Sequence record: PZ386951.1
From: a phage
Strand: one strand, 5' to 3'
Length of the DNA: 64,000 nt
The notes beneath the pieces were generated by a model. That model saw only the letters and a list, made by a program, of their open reading frames with translations, made no database searches and was not told where the DNA came from. The position numbers were made by a program, and so were the translations under genes. How positions within the stretch are numbered: position 1 is the first letter of the stretch; each line of letters opens with the position of its first letter. Below are positions 8,008-41,845 of the stretch, one piece after another.

Positions 8008-8194
8008 TATCTAAAATGTTGAAGTTAAAAGATACAGCCCAGTCAGTGCAGACTGTAACCTTTTTAATACAATTATCTTCAACCTCTAACGGTTCAAACC
8101 AGTATTCAATAATTTCTTTATGCCCAATATCATCTTTTACTTCGCATTCAAAATGCTGACTCATCATAACATTTTTAAATTCATCAAAAGTCAT
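7931..8194 (-). CDS. hypothetical protein (46.2 position)
   Basis: 87-aa ORF; stop overlaps gene 47 region; acidic small protein. Confidence 0.4.
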   Translation of the reverse strand: MTFDEFKNVMMSQHFECEVKDDIGHKEIIEYWFEPLEVEDNCIKKVTVCTDWAVSFNFNILDNDTPKSLRDMAVSCIKDAYCEVFDI

Positions 8195-18755: not shown

Positions 18756-18998
18756 TTATTCCTTAATTCCTAGTACTTGTTTAAAAGTCTCGTCGTAATC
18801 AAGACTTTGGCCCGTTTGTTCTTTATGTTTGTATATAATATCACTTACTTCTGATAGCATATTTTTATATGAACGAGTTAAAGCAGATTTAAGCACGCTG
18901 TATCTATCAGGAAATTTACCATGTTCATTATAATAAGCTATTACTAATTCACGGACTGCCTTTTCAGCAGTCTCCATATATTCTTTACGCTTGGTCAT
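18756..18998 (-). CDS. hypothetical protein; start taken at internal Met
   Basis: Track ORF is 133 aa but its first 53 codons overlap the upstream gene; start at [13 protein letters not shown] gives 80 aa. Confidence 0.4.
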
Positions 18999-19281
18999 TT
19001 TCTTCTCGGTCAAATCGGTGTTTACAATGGCGACATTTATAACGAAGATTATTAGTCTGCCAATGGACCAATTGCACCTGTTCAGTTCCACATTCAGGGC
19101 AATTAGGAACGTTTTTAGAAGCCCTTTCGCGACGCTTAACCATAGCCATAATGGCATCCCATGCTGGAGGTTTAAAATCTAAATCGTCAGTAACTAGCAG
19201 TCCTTTATCAAACCCAGCGCATGGAGTCCATTCAGGAAAATCTGAAGCTTCGGCAATATCTTCTAATAAACGCTTTTTCAT
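18985..19281 (-). CDS. hypothetical zinc-ribbon protein
   Basis: 98 aa with CPECG...CRHCKH four-Cys motif. Confidence 0.45.
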
Positions 19282-20204
19282 TTCAGTATCTCAATAGCAT
19301 CACGTAAACCATTTGCTTTGGCGGTTAAAGCCTTAAGAACTTTAGTATGCTCTTCAATCTGTTTTTCAACTTCAATCAAACGAGCATTGAGATATTCGCG
19401 TTCTTCTTTCATAGTATCATTCCCATGATTGGATTTTGGTGTAGGTTTAAATTCACTAGGGTCCTTTAATTTAATAACAAATTTAGTTTCAAACAGTGAA
19501 AGACCATAATTCGTATTATCATCAAAGGATTTGACTACATCCATATCAGATAATAACACGCGTAAATTATAAGCCAAAGAACTAATAGTTTCATTGTGTT
19601 TATTAGCTTCGCGTGGTTTCATATACGGAAGATTTTTATATATCTCGTGCGGAGCACAAACAATAATTGACAATTCAAATTGCCCATTCTGGGACGATGG
19701 AGTGAATTTAGCCGTAACCCAGTCTTTTACATTCACATTAATAGTACGGTTATCACCATGACAAAACAGTCTACGAGAATGCTTAAAAAGCATATTCACG
19801 TTATTATTGAATTCGTGTGAAAATTCACTAGCAAATTTTTCTTTACTATCTTTAGAAAACCATTCTTCTAAATAAGTTCTTTTCACGTCGTTAATAATAT
19901 TAAATGTAACAACACTAGCATTTGATACATTAGTCTCAATGTAGCTTGGATACATAAATTTTTTAACATTATTAACAGCTATCACAGAAGATAGTAATCG
20001 GGAACGTTTGAACCACTCTAGCAAAGAACCAAGAGAATGTGAATATGCATTTTGTGTATCTTTACAAATATGGTTTTCCCATCCAATATAGTCTAAAAAA
20101 TCACGAAGAATATTATTGATTACTGCTCTGTGTCCAATCTGATAATTACGGTGTTTAGTAATAAGACTGTCAAAATAATCAATATAATGTTTACGAGTTT
20201 TCAT
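19278..20204 (-). CDS. hypothetical protein with C-terminal coiled coil (tandem family member 1)
   Basis: 308 aa; N-terminus MKTRKHYIDYFDSLI similar to neighbour; C-terminal heptad-rich helix. Confidence 0.5.
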   Translation of the reverse strand: MKTRKHYIDYFDSLITKHRNYQIGHRAVINNILRDFLDYIGWENHICKDTQNAYSHSLGSLLEWFKRSRLLSSVIAVNNVKKFMYPSYIETNVSNASVVTFNIINDVKRTYLEEWFSKDSKEKFASEFSHEFNNNVNMLFKHSRRLFCHGDNRTINVNVKDWVTAKFTPSSQNGQFELSIIVCAPHEIYKNLPYMKPREANKHNETISSLAYNLRVLLSDMDVVKSFDDNTNYGLSLFETKFVIKLKDPSEFKPTPKSNHGNDTMKEEREYLNARLIEVEKQIEEHTKVLKALTAKANGLRDAIEILK

Positions 20205-20256
20205 GTTCTTCTCACTTGGTTAATGATTTATACTCCGAGCCATCCTTGGCTTTAAA

Positions 20257-21258
20257 TTACTTAATTAACTGTAAAGCTTGTTCAAGACGATCAAGACGAT
20301 TAACGGATTCTTCCCAAATCTTTTTAGCCTGCTCATATTCTTTCTGCGCTTTATTAGAAATTTCTAGAGCTTCTTTATAAGCTTTTTCTAGTGCAATAAC
20401 TTCTGGACGAATTTCTATCGGTTCAGGTGAATCGTCAAGACATTCCATTAGTTCCTCAAGGGTAGTTTCTTCTTTAGGAGTATTCACAATTTCATCACAT
20501 TTTTGTTGATAAATTTCTTTATCAGTAGGTGAGTACGCGCACTTTACTTCACGAAGACTAATTACAATTTTATATCCTTCCCAACCGCATATATTCTTAA
20601 AAGGATAAGTATGAATATTTTCTACTGTTTCCATACAAAGTAATGCGGTCTCTAATTGACGAGTTATAGTGCTAGCAATTGAGAAAAATTTATTAATATT
20701 CTTTTGGTTAGTTTCTGGTGTAAAAAATCCATAATTCACAAAAATAGATACTTTATTTTTATCAAGTTCATATTCTTTTATGATAATCATATCAGAAGCC
20801 AAAGGATGAATTTGACGATAATCGCCATAACATAATTTAGAAGCTGATTTTAGAATCTGTCCTTTGAAAAGTCTGAAATTACTAATCCAACGACGAGTAA
20901 AAATATTCTCAGGGTCTTCTTTATTATTAAGATGATAAGAATTAACATCACCGAACCAATTATATCCTACTACATCTTTGGTTCGTTTAATTTCTTTCCC
21001 AAAATTACCAAGAATATCCCGATTAACCAAATATGAAAGAAGACGAGACTCTTTAAAGGTTTTCTTGATAAGATCTTTATCTACACGGCTAGAAATTTTA
21101 CGAATTTCATGAATAAATTTAGTAGAAGAAACAATACTTGCATCAACACTATTGAGCCATTGATTGATAATAGAAAGAACGATATTTTGACCAAACATCG
21201 GTATAGCTTTATCATCAATAACGCTATTGAATGATTTGATATATTCGTTACGAGTCAT
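20257..21258 (-). CDS. hypothetical protein with C-terminal coiled coil (tandem family member 2)
   Basis: Start taken at MTRNEYIKSFNSVI so an early promoter lies upstream; N-terminal YIxxFxSxI and SRLLS motifs shared with member 1. Confidence 0.5.
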   Translation of the reverse strand: MTRNEYIKSFNSVIDDKAIPMFGQNIVLSIINQWLNSVDASIVSSTKFIHEIRKISSRVDKDLIKKTFKESRLLSYLVNRDILGNFGKEIKRTKDVVGYNWFGDVNSYHLNNKEDPENIFTRRWISNFRLFKGQILKSASKLCYGDYRQIHPLASDMIIIKEYELDKNKVSIFVNYGFFTPETNQKNINKFFSIASTITRQLETALLCMETVENIHTYPFKNICGWEGYKIVISLREVKCAYSPTDKEIYQQKCDEIVNTPKEETTLEELMECLDDSPEPIEIRPEVIALEKAYKEALEISNKAQKEYEQAKKIWEESVNRLDRLEQALQLIK

Positions 21259-21286
21259 ATTAATCTCCTCAGTAGAAAGTAAGAAC

Positions 21287-21316
21287 ATTATACCACATCC
21301 TTGTGGCAAAGTAAAC
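21287..21316 (-). promoter_or_regulatory. sigma70-type early promoter (minus strand)
   Basis: On minus strand GTTTAC, 18-nt spacer, TATAAT. Confidence 0.5.
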
Positions 21317-22344
21317 TAGTTCAGTGCATTTAGTGCATTGTTCAGTTTAGAACGTTGCTTTGTCAGATTTTGAACCCTTGACTGAGCTTGTTCTAACACC
21401 TTTTCAGCTTCTAGCACTTCATTAGTTGCTTTAACGAGTTCATCATCTACTGCCTTAAGAGACTTCTCAATCGCGTCAGCGTGCCATTTTTCTACAGGTT
21501 TAAAATTTGAATTTTCAGTAGGAAGAAAACTCACTTTATTAAGTTTACATGCATCTATATTGCTTGAGCTATACATCCAAAATTTAGGATCGTTTGATAA
21601 GTAATTGGATAAATTTAAATTTAAGTTATCTTGTACTTCCTGCTTTTTCTCTTGCGGGACTTCGTCCTTTCTCAAAAAATCGTATTTAAATGAAACGATC
21701 ATATCAAGTTCATATGATGTTGTATCTAATTTAAATCGTTCAAAACGAGGTAAAATCTTAGATTGAACAGCAGCAACAACATCCATATACTTAAATGCTT
21801 CTGTCAACTGTGATTTAAGGCATTCACAAATTGAAAGAGAATTTTTTGTATTAGGTTTAAAACTAATTCGCGCAGTTCTATTATTTTCTTTTAACGGTCT
21901 TACTTCCATCTGAAGAGTATAACCATCAAATTTCAGATTCTTTAAGTTAATATCAGAGCCTTTTAATCGACTAGAAGTAGACAAAATTTGCTTTAATTGT
22001 TTACGGAATAGAGCAATAAATCTCCATTCAATACGATAATGATTTGGATTGAAAAATCCAGATGATAAATCGACCTTACTCTGACCAACACCTTGAACAA
22101 ATAGAGGATTTTTATAATCAATAGTTTTACAGAAATCGGTGAGCTGCTCACGAGCAGTCATTTGCGTAATATACCCTGCTTTACTAAAATTACGCACCCA
22201 TTCACTGCTATTCGTATACTTAAAGTGATGAATAACACGATTAACTTTATCAGGGTCTAAATTATTTTCACACAAAAATGTCATAACATCACGAGTATAA
22301 CTGGCATTACGAACCATATCTTCAATTTGAGAACGAGTTTTCAT
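21316..22344 (-). CDS. hypothetical protein with C-terminal coiled coil (tandem family member 3)
   Basis: 342 aa; MKTR N-terminus; C-terminal coiled coil. Confidence 0.5.
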   Translation of the reverse strand: MKTRSQIEDMVRNASYTRDVMTFLCENNLDPDKVNRVIHHFKYTNSSEWVRNFSKAGYITQMTAREQLTDFCKTIDYKNPLFVQGVGQSKVDLSSGFFNPNHYRIEWRFIALFRKQLKQILSTSSRLKGSDINLKNLKFDGYTLQMEVRPLKENNRTARISFKPNTKNSLSICECLKSQLTEAFKYMDVVAAVQSKILPRFERFKLDTTSYELDMIVSFKYDFLRKDEVPQEKKQEVQDNLNLNLSNYLSNDPKFWMYSSSNIDACKLNKVSFLPTENSNFKPVEKWHADAIEKSLKAVDDELVKATNEVLEAEKVLEQAQSRVQNLTKQRSKLNNALNALN

Positions 22345-22352
22345 AGTGTTCC

Positions 22353-23261
22353 TTAAGATTTAAGTAAATCAACAATTTTAATTAACTTTTCACGCTCAGA
22401 TTTAGCTTTACTACTCAATCCAGATAGTCTGAAAATTTCATCGTCATACTGTTGAATAGAAATATTCAGCTCTTCAATTTGCTTATTAAAATAATCAATT
22501 TGTTCAGAATGTTTTTCGTTACTACGAACTGGTACATGTTTTGTAGGTAATTTAGATGAACTGGATTCATCCGGGCGATAAATTAAAATACAACTTGAAC
22601 CAATCGGGCATTTTGCACCAGACGAATATTCTAATGTTCCGGCTTCTTTTAAAACTTCAAAAGCTAAACAGAGATGATGTCCCATATTAACATAATCTGT
22701 AGAGCGAGCTCTGATATAATAATCATCGCCGCGAATACTAAATTTAAAGCATTTAAGGTCTTCTGTATTATTGGTCTTAAAAATCATTTGTTTATCTAGA
22801 CCTTTAGCTAATCGAGCGCCTAATGCTAATAATCGTCGTTGATTTTCCCACAAATCTGCGATCATTTGGTCAAATGATAATTTCGGCATTAGTCGACCGT
22901 AAAGATCATAGCCTTTATTATAATTGCGAAGGATTTCACTCGCATTAATACGAGACAACGCTCCAATTTTATTAAGGGCTTTCATAATGCGATTAGATAA
23001 ACCCATTCCAGACCCGTTTGTTCGTTGTAAATGTTTATCTAATCCAAACCCAATATCAACTTTAAATTTATCTAAAATTTCAGCATGAACATCTCTGTCA
23101 ATAACATTCAAATCCAAAGTTGGGTTAAATCTATGAAAAAATTTATCTGGCTCTCCACGACGAAGTACAGTCCATTCATTCAATTTTTTATTAACTAAAG
23201 ATTTAATTACTGCATTGACATTATTAATTACGACTGACATATTTTCCTCACTCAATTTCAA
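22353..23261 (-). CDS. hypothetical protein with C-terminal coiled coil (tandem family member 4)
   Basis: 302 aa; C-terminal coiled coil. Confidence 0.5.
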   Translation of the reverse strand: MKLSEENMSVVINNVNAVIKSLVNKKLNEWTVLRRGEPDKFFHRFNPTLDLNVIDRDVHAEILDKFKVDIGFGLDKHLQRTNGSGMGLSNRIMKALNKIGALSRINASEILRNYNKGYDLYGRLMPKLSFDQMIADLWENQRRLLALGARLAKGLDKQMIFKTNNTEDLKCFKFSIRGDDYYIRARSTDYVNMGHHLCLAFEVLKEAGTLEYSSGAKCPIGSSCILIYRPDESSSSKLPTKHVPVRSNEKHSEQIDYFNKQIEELNISIQQYDDEIFRLSGLSSKAKSEREKLIKIVDLLKS

Positions 23262-23655
23262 TTTTACTAAATATACAGAATAAGATGGAACAGACTATAT
23301 AAGCACCACACACAGATTGAACTAATACCATTCCAAAGAACCAAATAATATTATCAAACAATGTCTGTTTTACGTCGAAAGGACGTAAACTTACAGTAAT
23401 ATTATCACCTTTTTCTATTGAAGAATACATCTCTGGGGAAATATATTCACTAAATCTATAACCGTCTTTGAGTTCATATACAGCAATAAATGATAAACTA
23501 GACCCCTTTCCTTGAGTTCCTGTAATGGTATTAACTACAGTAACATCATAATCTTTATAATGCATATAATCATTAATTGCGTAATAACCATATGCAATTA
23601 CTATACATAAACAACATATCAATAAATTCAATCTTTTAATTATCAACCGTTTCAT
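23248..23655 (-). CDS. membrane protein
   Basis: 135 aa with N- and C-terminal hydrophobic helices. Confidence 0.45.
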   Translation of the reverse strand: MKRLIIKRLNLLICCLCIVIAYGYYAINDYMHYKDYDVTVVNTITGTQGKGSSLSFIAVYELKDGYRFSEYISPEMYSSIEKGDNITVSLRPFDVKQTLFDNIIWFFGMVLVQSVCGAYIVCSILFCIFSKIEIE

Positions 23656-23710: not shown

Positions 23711-24238
23711 TTATGCGAGTACCGTCTTTAACCGTTCTTCAAACTTCCGAAGAGTATTTTGGCGTTCAGCTCTTTGCTTTTTGTAAGTTTCAATACGCTC
23801 TGAAATGAGAGTGTATCGTTCATTTACTGATTCTTTCATAAAATCAGGAATTTCACGAGAAGTTTTAATCTCGTCAAATTTATCAATAACAGCTTGCTCT
23901 TCAGCAATTAAGTTATCATACATCAAAATATCTTTCTTGATGAACTCAATATCTTCTTGAGTTACACGAGATAATTTAGATGCTTTATCCTTTTTGTACT
24001 GTTCGTTAGTATCACGAGACCAGTGTAATGTACGATTTTTATTCGTATTCTTGTAAATTTCTACAATACCAATCTCATCGATAATAACGATCCAATTCCA
24101 ACGGGATTTGTAAATTTGTCCTCCATCAACAGTGATTTCACCTCCGATTGAGATGTCATTAAAGAACTTGCTTTGTGCTTCTGATTTAAATTTACCATCG
24201 TTGTAATTTACCAGGTTGAAAATATCTTTAGCGTTCAT
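23711..24238 (-). CDS. hypothetical protein
   Basis: 175-aa ORF downstream of an early promoter. Confidence 0.45.
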   Translation of the reverse strand: MNAKDIFNLVNYNDGKFKSEAQSKFFNDISIGGEITVDGGQIYKSRWNWIVIIDEIGIVEIYKNTNKNRTLHWSRDTNEQYKKDKASKLSRVTQEDIEFIKKDILMYDNLIAEEQAVIDKFDEIKTSREIPDFMKESVNERYTLISERIETYKKQRAERQNTLRKFEERLKTVLA

Positions 24239-41281: not shown

Positions 41282-41845
41282 TTATTTACCCAGTTTAGTT
41301 ATTATAGCTTCGGCAGCAGCTTTTAGCTTAGATGCAGTGTTAATACGATTTTTAATTTCAGTATACGCATCGCCAAGAACATCAAGGCTATCTGAATAAA
41401 CACTTACACTATTGCGTTCACTATTTGAAATAGAACCTTTAGTTTTACGATCAAAATCGGTGTACACGTCTTGAAGATCGCGGGCTGCCTTCTTTGCATC
41501 ATCCAATGCATCAAGAGCTTTATTTAAAGCATTAACATATTTTTTAGTGTCAAACATATTCTTAGAAATTTTGACGGGTGCGCGTTCAGGAGTAGCTAAG
41601 GCAGATTTAGGAACCTGAGCGCCTGATGCCAGTTTCTTAGAAATTTTGAAAAATGCTTTATTGAATTTATTTTCTTGACTCATCGTAAAAGAACTATTAT
41701 CGATGTTATACATTTCAATAGCTTTAGCTTTCCACTTAAGAAAATCGCCCCGGTCTTTTGGGTCCAAGTGGAAGAATACTTTAGTAAGATCTGCTTCAGA
41801 TGGTAATTTTGCTGCTTCGGTTAAAAATTCGGCATAGGTTTTCAT
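41282..41845 (-). CDS. internal-protein-like protein with capsid targeting sequence
   Basis: 187 aa; N-terminus MKTYAEFLTE followed by AAK. Confidence 0.5.
   Translation of the reverse strand: MKTYAEFLTEAAKLPSEADLTKVFFHLDPKDRGDFLKWKAKAIEMYNIDNSSFTMSQENKFNKAFFKISKKLASGAQVPKSALATPERAPVKISKNMFDTKKYVNALNKALDALDDAKKAARDLQDVYTDFDRKTKGSISNSERNSVSVYSDSLDVLGDAYTEIKNRINTASKLKAAAEAIITKLGK

Follow-up and report, generated by a model that had tools for sequence, protein, structure and literature searches.

The window analysed here, a stretch of 64,000 nucleotides of phage DNA (PZ386951.1), contains a minus-strand array of four genes that is largely supported as a tandem set of anciently duplicated and strongly diverged paralogs, with the ortholog of T4 nrdC.6 as the least certain member. 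The array is most likely an anti-defence family because T4 nrdC.5 counteracts the SIR2-domain defence protein Dsr1 (Srikant, Guegler and Laub, eLife 2022, PMC9391042). The functional evidence within the family comes from NrdC.5 only, and from the T4 protein.

Orthologs of T4 nrdC.3 to nrdC.6 and their database families

The four consecutive ORFs that a preliminary description had noted at 19278-23261 are real genes. When comparing them to the T4 nrdC region, as that description had proposed, we find that each is the ortholog of a T4 gene, with 92-98% identity. All lie on the minus strand: ORF1 (nrdC.3; 19278..20204, 308 aa, 92% identity), ORF2 (nrdC.4; 20257..21258, 333 aa, 98%), ORF3 (nrdC.5; 21316..22344, 342 aa, 95%) and ORF4 (nrdC.6; 22353..23240, 295 aa from the ATG, 96.5% over 259 residues). 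ORF3 is flanked by nrdC.4 and nrdC.6 in the same order as in T4 and aligns with T4 NrdC.5 over 342 aa, which identifies it as the nrdC.5 ortholog.

Two start codons differ from the first listing. ORF4 was listed as 22353-23261 (302 aa); its start is most likely the ATG at 23240, which gives 295 aa, because GAGGAAA precedes this codon, the T4 annotation begins there and most database homologs have 292-298 aa. ORF2 was listed up to a TTG (350 aa), whereas the ATG at 21258 gives 333 aa; this ATG is preceded by GAGGAG and by a promoter-like TTTACT-17-TATAAT, and homologs begin at the same position. The promoter-like site (TTTACT, 17 nt spacer, TATAAT, TG; 21287..21315, minus strand) sits upstream of the gene, in a gap of 57 nt. 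Such sites are not enriched across the region (38 compared to 29.9 +/- 5.5 in shuffles) and the site is thus only a lead.

The neighbouring nrdC.2-like gene (18985..19281, minus strand) encodes a protein of 98 aa with weak zinc-ribbon Pfam matches, and its start overlaps the nrdC.3 stop by 4 nt. It is not a paralog but may be a linked partner of the array. A gene of this type also lies beside a family member in RB69 and CC31. In Roth66, a small gene downstream of the family member is annotated as 'Dam-replacing family protein' and is probably the equivalent of nrdC.2.

Databases hold the proteins as three separate, unrelated families. The first comprises the nrdC.3 and nrdC.4 orthologs, which match phrog_1435 over their full length (E 2.2e-100, residues 2-308, and E 1.6e-168, residues 1-333, respectively); their assignment to PF26897 was read from the precomputed annotation carried by all of their homologs, not from a direct profile score. 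The nrdC.5 ortholog matches phrog_2351 and Pfam DUF7235 (PF23882; E 8e-119, 397 bits where Pfam's gathering cut-off is 30, covering the whole profile, positions 1-307). The third family comprises the nrdC.6 ortholog, which matches phrog_2257 (E 1.4e-151, residues 8-302 in the 302-aa numbering, profile positions 1-303), and PF26899 is precomputed on 105 of its 105 homologs. In the Pfam scan, the nrdC.3 ortholog reached only E 0.53 against DUF7235 and the nrdC.4 and nrdC.6 orthologs had no match to it; judged by these scores, the three fall outside DUF7235 as it is defined. Comparing profiles and structures, we join NrdC.5 with the NrdC.3/NrdC.4 and NrdC.6 families in a proposed superfamily.

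Many GenBank records label genes of the nrdC.3-6 type as thioredoxin or glutaredoxin. We rejected this identity since no such family is matched in Pfam or NCBIfam, and neither the AlphaFold2 models nor the fold-search matches show anything thioredoxin-like. In our reading, the label was inherited from the name nrdC.x of the genes; the widespread misannotation is hereby corrected. Searches found no further known family that the four proteins match, and no enzyme or defence protein.

Probable common descent and shared architecture

The tandem duplication and divergence proposed in the preliminary description stand for nrdC.3, nrdC.4 and nrdC.5 by profile comparison; nrdC.6 joins weakly by sequence (E 3-5e-4) and mainly by predicted structure. 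Comparing nrdC.3 to nrdC.4 with hhalign gave a probability of 98-99%, and the single nrdC.3/nrdC.4-type gene of other genera matches both by phmmer. The N-terminal motifs earlier noticed in the first two proteins (YIDYFDSLI and YIKSFNSVI; SRLLS) contain truly invariant residues: T2, R3, Y6, I7, F10, F68, S71, R72 and L74 are identical in 29 sequences of the two families. The nrdC.5 protein aligns colinearly with the joint nrdC.3/nrdC.4 profile over the central domain (probability 95%, E 3.5e-8), and the M(K)TR start is common to all three. Furthermore, when the ORFs at five phage loci are ranked by HMM score, the cross-family matches come directly under the true family members.

An alternative is that unrelated proteins, either nrdC.6 or all four, gained similar C-terminal coiled coils independently, the array being a coincidence of similar-sized genes. 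Its arguments are that pairwise BLAST among the four found nothing significant except a marginal nrdC.3-nrdC.4 match, that first-pass hhalign of nrdC.6 against the other three remained below a probability of 3%, that profile comparisons restricted to the C-terminal tails had no significance on their own, and that Pfam and PHROGs keep three families. For nrdC.3, nrdC.4 and nrdC.5, the profile comparisons above exclude it. For nrdC.6, the profile signal is sub-threshold: the protein is colinear with the joint nrdC.3/nrdC.4 profile (probability 31%, E 5e-4) and with a Roth66 family member (probability 41%, E 3e-4), and comparison to nrdC.5 gave a probability of 6.5%. These colinear alignments nevertheless match the SR...L..F/Y and G-D-x-R/K motifs, which contradicts unrelated origins, as do the structural links. 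In Foldseek, the nrdC.4 model finds the NrdC.6-family structure JS10 NrdC.6 (E 6e-6, TM 0.44/0.52), and the links between nrdC.4 and nrdC.6 are reciprocal (E 1e-4 to 6e-6). Both models share six matches, to proteins of about 300-370 aa from the T4-like phages IME523, PM2, fHyAci03, Acj9, Acj61 and fHe-Yen9-01. The TM values of 0.44-0.52 come with a high rmsd because of flexible linkers. In addition, the sole family copy of CC31 is nrdC.6-like, and Roth66 carries an nrdC.3/nrdC.4-like copy in the same syntenic slot. We thus consider unrelated origins very unlikely. The nrdC.6 protein is probably a family member and the most diverged paralog; the main evidence is its predicted structure, whereas its sequence signal is under the usual thresholds. 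As far as found, the superfamily is known only from T4-like phages (Straboviridae); the genes themselves were already known, and no description of the link among nrdC.3-6 was found in the searchable literature.

Structure prediction was run on the nrdC.4 and nrdC.6 orthologs (mean pLDDT 82.5 and pLDDT 76.9, respectively), and the secondary-structure elements come in the same order in both AlphaFold models. In the common plan, a bundle of helices at the N-terminus is followed by a central alpha/beta domain that consists of a long helix, a beta-hairpin, another helix and a second beta-hairpin. A linker modelled with low confidence then leads to a long amphipathic C-terminal helix of 40-60 residues that terminates in a hydrophobic-Leu-Lys motif. 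In the nrdC.4 ortholog, the bundle comprises residues 3-84 (21007..21252, minus strand) and the central domain residues 88-235 (20554..20997, minus strand); the alignments to NrdC.5 and, with a weak signal, to NrdC.6 fall in the latter. Alignments and the heptad scan suggest that the nrdC.3 and nrdC.5 proteins follow the same plan.

The C-terminal heptad-rich helices of 40-60 residues that had been proposed were recovered as heptad-rich, Pro/Gly-poor stretches of 39, 53, 61 and 58 residues in ORF1 to ORF4; shuffled sequences reached these lengths in 4, 0, 0 and 0 of 300 cases, respectively. Such tails are rare outside the array: the whole window has 52 ORFs of 150 aa or more, and five of these have a tail of at least 40 aa, of which three are in the array (ORF1 scores 39) and one is nrdC.8, two genes further on. 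On the minus strand, the helices map to 19281..19418 in the nrdC.3 ortholog (about residues 263-308, heptad scan), 20263..20406 in the nrdC.4 ortholog (residues 285-332, a single AlphaFold2 helix of 48 residues with pLDDT 76-86, also found in the heptad scan), 21319..21501 in the nrdC.5 ortholog (about residues 282-342, a 61-residue stretch in the heptad scan, whose last 56 residues contain no Pro or Gly) and 22359..22508 in the nrdC.6 ortholog (residues 245-271 and 277-294, AlphaFold2 and heptad scan). The C-terminal region of nrdC.6 has DDEIF and LLK in all of the 26 sequences compared. These models and scans show heptad periodicity and helicity, and a coiled-coil oligomer is putative. According to the preliminary description, a lack of significant similarity among the four would have meant convergent coiled coils. 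Similarity was found, although below threshold for the nrdC.6 sequence; given the homology of the four proteins, the coiled coils are thus unlikely to have been gained convergently by proteins of separate origin.

The central domain may also resemble tail terminator or tail completion proteins with the lambda gpU fold (for example 3fz2, 6tba_4A, 8bcp_C). At 4-18% identity, the likeness would be one of fold and not of family, and compared to gpU-like proteins the phage proteins here add the N-terminal bundle and the long C-terminal helix. Taken literally, the fold would make the four virion-assembly or neck-related factors and not anti-defence proteins. However, the genes sit in the early nrdC-tk accessory region among non-structural genes and not in a tail module, T4-like phages, whose virions are conserved, carry between 0 and 4 copies, and nrdC.5 has been described as early and nonessential, in a region deletable in viable evolved T4 clones (PMC9391042). 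We therefore rejected membership in a gpU-like tail module and regard a virion role as extremely unlikely.

Copy number and sequence divergence

Comparison across T4-like phages shows a growth of the array in copy number, from 0-2 copies in distant T4-like phages to three in RB69-like phages and four in Tequatrovirus. The nrdC.3 ortholog is the youngest copy; it occurs only in Tequatrovirus and has no counterpart in L006-L014.

The four genes have a dN/dS of 0.14-0.29 compared to 0.01-0.10 in flanking genes (2-30 fold higher). Across genera, identity is 39-50% for nrdC.4, 20-27% for nrdC.5 and 45-51% for nrdC.6, compared to 77-89% for flanking genes. Alignments show that this rapid protein evolution is concentrated in the middle domain, with the ends comparatively conserved. 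For instance, the two allele classes of nrdC.3 share only 36-51% amino acid identity in the central domain but 88% at the N-terminus, and the nrdC.3 C-terminal helix block is 72-85% conserved across alleles compared to 38-68% in the centre. Similarly, the C-terminal helix of nrdC.4 ranks with the best conserved blocks when genera are compared (0.62-0.73). The central domains of nrdC.3 and nrdC.5 are extremely divergent beside flanking genes that are 99-100% identical. The nrdC.6 protein contains a strongly conserved 60-residue block, YNKGYDLYGR...NQRRLLALGARLA.G.DKQM.FKTN, which is more suggestive of a fixed functional site than of a surface shaped by an arms race.

The array had initially been linked to an arms race with the host. 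The activity of T4 nrdC.5 against Dsr1 (PMC9391042) and the fast divergence support this indirectly, but gene-wide dN/dS is below 1 in all four genes and positive selection was not demonstrated. Thus, relaxed constraint fits as well as diversifying selection.

A candidate counter-defence repertoire

A T4 deletion mutant infects Dsr1-carrying cells when NrdC.5 is expressed alone from a plasmid; this evidence is a genetic rescue (PMC9391042). The activity belongs to T4's own NrdC.5; the window protein, full-length in DUF7235 and in the same position, is a 95%-identical ortholog known from its sequence. ORFs 1, 2 and 4 are most likely distant paralogs of the same architecture that lie outside DUF7235, and the searchable literature does not describe nrdC.3, nrdC.4 or nrdC.6 as relatives of NrdC.5.

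We consider it somewhat better than an even chance that the four paralogs are early-expressed counter-defence proteins that have diversified and act by direct binding via the central domain. The host immunity protein that is neutralised, or the variant of it, would differ from paralog to paralog, with contacts made by the variable central domain. The conserved C-terminal helix might oligomerise the inhibitor and thereby provide avidity towards oligomeric defence proteins; alternatively, it might dock onto a common partner.

The four could also be paralogs of which NrdC.5 affects Dsr1 indirectly, by hiding or modifying the phage component that is sensed or by altering host physiology, with the others as general host-takeover or accessory factors. 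The restriction to genetic rescue, the gene-wide dN/dS below 1 and the good conservation of nrdC.6 and of the ends of all members, as for contact with a conserved phage or host partner, are in line with such indirect action. However, nrdC.5 alone suffices for rescue from a plasmid, and central domains as divergent as those of nrdC.3 and nrdC.5 beside nearly identical flanking genes are typical of proteins that track variable host targets. We thus regard indirect action as possible but rather unlikely.

The nearest functional analogue for a possible mode of action of NrdC.5 appears to be DSAD1 of an SPbeta-group phage. DSAD1 is reported to inhibit the SIR2 defence protein DSR2 by direct binding, competing with its trigger; both phage proteins neutralise a defence-associated sirtuin. 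The target of DSAD1 is DSR2 and not DSR1 and the phage lineage is another; the putative likeness is taken from the literature. By analogy to the competition between DSAD1 and the tail tube protein for DSR2, the central domain might be a decoy that mimics a phage neck or tail protein of the tail-terminator or tail-completion fold and occupies a defence protein's sensor domain but does not activate the protein. We consider this mechanism improbable. A broader proposal, speculative and unlikely in its full form, is that NrdC.3-6 are a modular anti-defence superfamily, specific to T4-like phages, with a constant handle and a variable head. The N-terminal bundle and the C-terminal coiled coil would provide the conserved scaffold. 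The tail-terminator-like central domain would be a swappable decoy plugging sensor domains, with Dsr1 as the first known target, and each paralog and each nrdC.3 allele class would aim at a different defence system. If true, the array would be a small phage-encoded repertoire of immune antagonists, enlarged by tandem duplication.

Other T4 accessory counter-defence genes (tifA, adfA/61.2, dmd, ipIII and the anti-OLD gene gp49.2) are likewise non-essential, lie in hyperplastic regions and determine host range with respect to specific defence systems. These are single small genes, whereas nrdC.3-6 form a four-member array of multi-domain paralogs of about 300-340 aa. In T-even genomes, gp49.2 lies about 1 kb from the array.

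T4 is the best-studied phage, yet its nrdC.3, nrdC.4 and nrdC.6 are orphan genes and nrdC.5 is known by its anti-Dsr1 phenotype only. As members of one family, the three orphans become good candidates for new counter-defence activities. The hypervariable central domain is the likely specificity determinant and the C-terminal helix the likely scaffold. The two nrdC.3 allele classes and the series of one to four copies in T4-like phages provide a ready comparative system. In practical terms, the nrdC.3-6 genes are likely host-range determinants of T4-like phages.

Gene array and neighbourhood

The array (19278–23261) consists of four consecutive ORFs, as had been described; all four lie on the minus strand and are present in the ORF listing of the window. 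Its surroundings contain endonuclease VII, pin-like genes and NrdC, after which comes a run of minus-strand genes; transcriptionally upstream of the array are nrdC.7, which encodes a predicted membrane protein, nrdC.8, nrdC.9, nrdC.10 and nrdC.11. In a megablast search, 503 phage records matched the array with a best identity of 97.2%, and nearly all of these are T4-like phages of Escherichia, Shigella or Yersinia. Comparison with the annotation of T4 (NC_000866) identified the ORFs as orthologs of nrdC.3 (19278–20204, 308 aa, 92% identity), nrdC.4 (20257–21258, 333 aa, 98%), nrdC.5 (21316–22344, 342 aa vs 340 in T4, 95%) and nrdC.6 (22353–23240, 96.5% over 259 compared residues). From these identities and the gene order, we conclude that the window phage is a Tequatrovirus that is distinct from T4 itself.

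The previously given sizes of 308, 333 and 342 aa hold, whereas the fourth protein most likely has 295 aa instead of 302. Its probable start is the ATG at 23240, as this is preceded by GAGGAAA, agrees with the annotated start in T4 and fits the length of most homologs (292–298 aa). The homolog of Shigella phage Sf25 (P0099) has 378 aa (98% identical, 85% query coverage), possibly due to a fusion with the upstream gene or an annotation artefact of the start codon. For nrdC.4, the start is the ATG at 21258, which is preceded by GAGGAG; a promoter-like TTTACT-17-TATAAT lies upstream, inside the gap after nrdC.5.

Several observations concern the adjacent genes. The nrdC.7 ortholog (23248–23655, minus strand) adjoins nrdC.6 in Tequatrovirus, has the highest dN/dS of the neighbourhood (0.37) and was undetected by phmmer in the nine non-Tequatrovirus loci (L006–L014). 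RB69 and CC31 have a gene with the annotation nrdC.7 elsewhere, between nrdC.2 and nrdC. On the other side of the array, an nrdC.2-like zinc-ribbon protein (18985–19281, minus strand) is just 67% identical to T4 NrdC.2, whereas the surrounding genes are far more conserved. There is a 4-nt overlap between its start and the stop of nrdC.3, and the protein may be a translationally coupled partner. A small gene likewise follows the family member in RB69, CC31 and Roth66, annotated in Roth66 as 'Dam-replacing family protein'. In GenBank, the homologs of nrdC.3–nrdC.6 are called 'thioredoxin' in many phage records, while a few use 'Mur ligase domain-containing protein'. We rejected the label 'thioredoxin', as there was neither a thioredoxin-family match nor a thioredoxin-like fold match to support it, and take it to have its origin in the locus names nrdC.x.

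Relatedness of the four proteins

The first two proteins had been described as sharing N-terminal motifs, and this was borne out: all 29 sequences compared have T2, R3, Y6, I7, F10, F68, S71, R72 and L74 in common. Furthermore, phrog_1435 is matched over its full length by nrdC.3 (E 2e-100) and nrdC.4 (E 2e-168), their homologs have PF26897 in common (precomputed Pfam), and the hhalign probability between them is 98–99%. In other genera, a single nrdC.3/4-type gene matches both (phmmer). NrdC.5 belongs to Pfam DUF7235 (E 8e-119) and to its own PHROG. It aligned colinearly to the joint nrdC.3/4 profile with a first-pass hhalign probability of 82–92%, which with enlarged alignments became 95% (E 3.5e-8, central domain), and it also begins with the M(K)TR start of nrdC.3/4. 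These sequence profiles lead us to conclude with high confidence that nrdC.3, nrdC.4 and nrdC.5 are homologous.

Pairwise BLASTP, run on the four proteins together with neighbouring ones, lacks the sensitivity to settle their relatedness; its sole match was a marginal one between NrdC.3 and NrdC.4 (E 0.017). An exhaustive HMMER search with NrdC.5 against 1.84 billion representatives yielded 12 matches, apparently all from its own family, with no bridge to the other families and no cellular homolog. A sequence search of the PDB with NrdC.5 gave noise only (caspase-3, E 0.6–1), and nothing meaningful was matched in NCBIfam and PADLOC. At the nucleotide level, a repeat search detected no residual duplication, and its only notable match is the start ATGAAAACTCGT (MKTR), which nrdC.3 and nrdC.5 share. 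The duplications are thus old.

Each of the four proteins had been said to end in a heptad-rich helix, and both a heptad scan and AlphaFold2 models of NrdC.4 and NrdC.6 agree with this. The scan counted windows of 28 residues in which the a/d positions are hydrophobic and Pro or Gly occurs no more than once. The heptad stretches running to the C-terminus comprise 39, 53, 61 and 58 residues in nrdC.3 to nrdC.6, and were equalled by 4/300, 0/300, 0/300 and 0/300 shuffles, respectively. A tail of at least 40 residues occurs in five of the 52 window ORFs with at least 150 aa; three belong to the array, and a fourth is nrdC.8, which lies two genes from it. The models place a single terminal helix at 285–332 in NrdC.4 (mean pLDDT 82.5) and two helices at 245–271 and 277–294 in NrdC.6 (mean pLDDT 76.9). 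The family consensus sequences end in ..LRNAIEVLK, ..LEQALELLK, ..LnaAllALK and ..iinLLKD, which have a hydrophobic-Leu-Lys terminus in common. When only the last 50 residues were compared as profiles, no pair reached significance (best NrdC.3–NrdC.5, probability 28%), so that homology of the tails cannot be demonstrated from the tails themselves.

Other heptad-rich tails were observed in the window. The nrdC.8 ortholog (23711–24238, minus strand, 175 aa) has a 41-residue heptad-rich C-terminal helix. We considered it as a fifth family member and left it out, as hhalign gave no signal against the four. Foldseek weakly matched the NrdC.4 model to a 175-aa protein of Klebsiella phage KPV15 (E 4.5e-3). 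Outside the nrdC locus, a 187-aa ORF (41282–41845, minus strand) is the sole one with such a tail (50 residues). In T4 (NC_000866, about 8067–8130 of the T4 locus L015, about 22440–22460 of the window), nrdC.6 has a 1-nt deletion compared to the window where the C-terminal helix begins. The resulting frameshift leaves 275 aa without the helix, and the DNA past the deletion still codes for ...ISIQQYDDEIFRLSGLSSKAKSEREKLIKIVDLLKS in another frame. Either the laboratory strain mutated here or the old sequence contains an error.

NrdC.6 belongs to PF26899 and phrog_2257. For nrdC.6, profile alignment left the link below threshold: there was no signal in first-pass hhalign with small alignments, and with enlarged alignments colinear matches to the joint nrdC.3/4 profile (31%, E 5e-4) and to the homolog of Klebsiella phage Roth66 (41%, E 3e-4), in which the motifs SR...L..F/Y and G-D-x-R/K are aligned. 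In HMM searches of the ORFs of five further phage loci, cross-family matches rank just under the true members. The structural evidence is stronger. The NrdC.4 and NrdC.6 models have the same order of elements at near-equal positions from the N-terminal helical bundle on: a long helix (119–142 and 123–144, respectively), a first beta-hairpin (158–174 and 165–178), a helix between the hairpins (185–208 and 186–199), a second beta-hairpin (212–235 and 204–221), a low-confidence linker and the C-terminal helix. Among viral structures, Foldseek matched the NrdC.4 model to NrdC.6 of phage JS10 (E 6e-6, TM 0.44/0.52). Both models also matched the same uncharacterised proteins of about 300–370 aa in T4-like phages (Enterobacter IME523, Pectobacterium PM2, Acinetobacter fHyAci03, Acj9 and Acj61, Yersinia fHe-Yen9-01; E 1e-3 to 7e-8). 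From the models and profiles, nrdC.6 is probably homologous to the other three, for which we have good but not complete confidence. Convergence, with which the tail comparison would be compatible, is now unlikely. The proposed tandem duplication and divergence stands for nrdC.3, nrdC.4 and nrdC.5 and probably extends to nrdC.6, and we regard the paralogy as a whole as very probable.

Divergence and copy number in T4-like phages

The four paralogs share one three-part architecture, in which a conserved N-terminus and a C-terminal helix enclose a fast-changing central domain. Within Tequatrovirus, they are 86–99% identical (nrdC.3 down to 59–60% in one allele class), and the flanking genes (endonuclease VII, nrdC, nrdC.8–11) 97–100%. 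Across genera, identities are 77–89% for the flanking genes, 39–50% for nrdC.4, 45–51% for nrdC.6 and only 20–27% for nrdC.5. Nei-Gojobori dN/dS is 0.29, 0.18, 0.20 and 0.14 for nrdC.3 to nrdC.6, compared to 0.01 for endonuclease VII and nrdC and 0.04–0.10 for nrdC.8–11. Of the suggested arms race between diversified paralogs and the host, these ratios bear out an accelerated evolution of the proteins; they do not show positive selection across whole genes. Across genera, few blocks of nrdC.4 and nrdC.6 are conserved as well as the C-terminal helix, and in nrdC.5 conservation is highest over the last 40 residues.

For nrdC.3 (19278–20204), two sharply distinct allele classes with about 60% overall identity exist in Tequatrovirus (loci L001, L004 and L005). 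Between them, the N-terminal 80 residues are 88%, the C-terminal helix 71–77% and the central domain 36–51% identical. As these classes differ amid neighbours with 97–100% identity, and most megablast matches begin only at query position 438, within nrdC.3, recombinational module exchange is suggested.

The array grew stepwise via tandem duplication. The Tequatrovirus loci L002–L005 contain nrdC.6, nrdC.5, nrdC.4 and nrdC.3 in that order, and nine loci from other E. coli T4-like genera, as well as RB69, contain nrdC.6, nrdC.5 and one nrdC.3/4-type gene. A single copy is found in Enterobacter phage CC31 (nrdC.6-like, HMM E 1.5e-6), Acinetobacter phage AM101 (weakly nrdC.5-like) and Klebsiella phage Roth66 (nrdC.3/4-like). 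In the stretch fetched for Cronobacter phage GAP161 (Pseudotevenvirus), there is no family member downstream of nrdC.11. From this distribution, nrdC.3 is the youngest copy and specific to Tequatrovirus. In the distant phages, the family copy adjoins nrdC or a small nrdC.2-type gene. Acinetobacter phage Acj61 has two consecutive UniProt accessions that are both Foldseek matches, which suggests a separate duplication. CC31p079 and a 170-aa ORF of Roth66 were rejected as NrdC.8-like or family-like, being homologous to each other only.

Function and proposed mechanism

The array is not a new kind of system: its genes have long been annotated as T4 orthologs, and for one of them a phenotype has been published. 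Srikant, Guegler and Laub (eLife 2022, PMC9391042) evolved T4 against toxIN, and one of the evolved clones, which carries a deletion in the accessory region, no longer infected E. coli ECOR17. Infection was regained when dsr1, encoding a SIR2-domain defence protein, was deleted from ECOR17, and dsr1 on a plasmid shields MG1655 from the T4 deletion mutant. T4 NrdC.5 neutralises Dsr1 (PMC9391042). Beyond this paper, our literature search found no follow-up on the mechanism of the neutralisation, no function for nrdC.3, nrdC.4 and nrdC.6, and nothing on the DUF/Pfam accessions. Recent work shows that the neighbouring gene 49.2 inhibits the OLD defence system, so that further counter-defence genes are present in this part of T-even genomes.

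We propose that the family members are early-expressed, cytoplasmic counter-defence proteins, and consider the chances of such a family-wide role to be even; a role in virion assembly is very unlikely. The central domain would bind host immunity proteins directly, with targets that differ among paralogs and alleles. The amphipathic C-terminal helix would oligomerise the proteins, which would give avidity for oligomeric targets; alternatively, it might dock onto a shared partner. Direct binding is the more tentative part of this proposal, and we hold it to be somewhat doubtful. The neutralisation of Dsr1 could also come about through an indirect action of NrdC.5, and a decoy version of the model builds on a possible resemblance to tail terminators.

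In databases and the searchable literature, we did not find PF26897, DUF7235 and PF26899 united as one superfamily with a common architecture. Through this link, nrdC.3, nrdC.4 and nrdC.6 would be paralogs of the anti-Dsr1 protein, and the central domain stands out as the putative specificity element; the lead is useful and can be tested directly.
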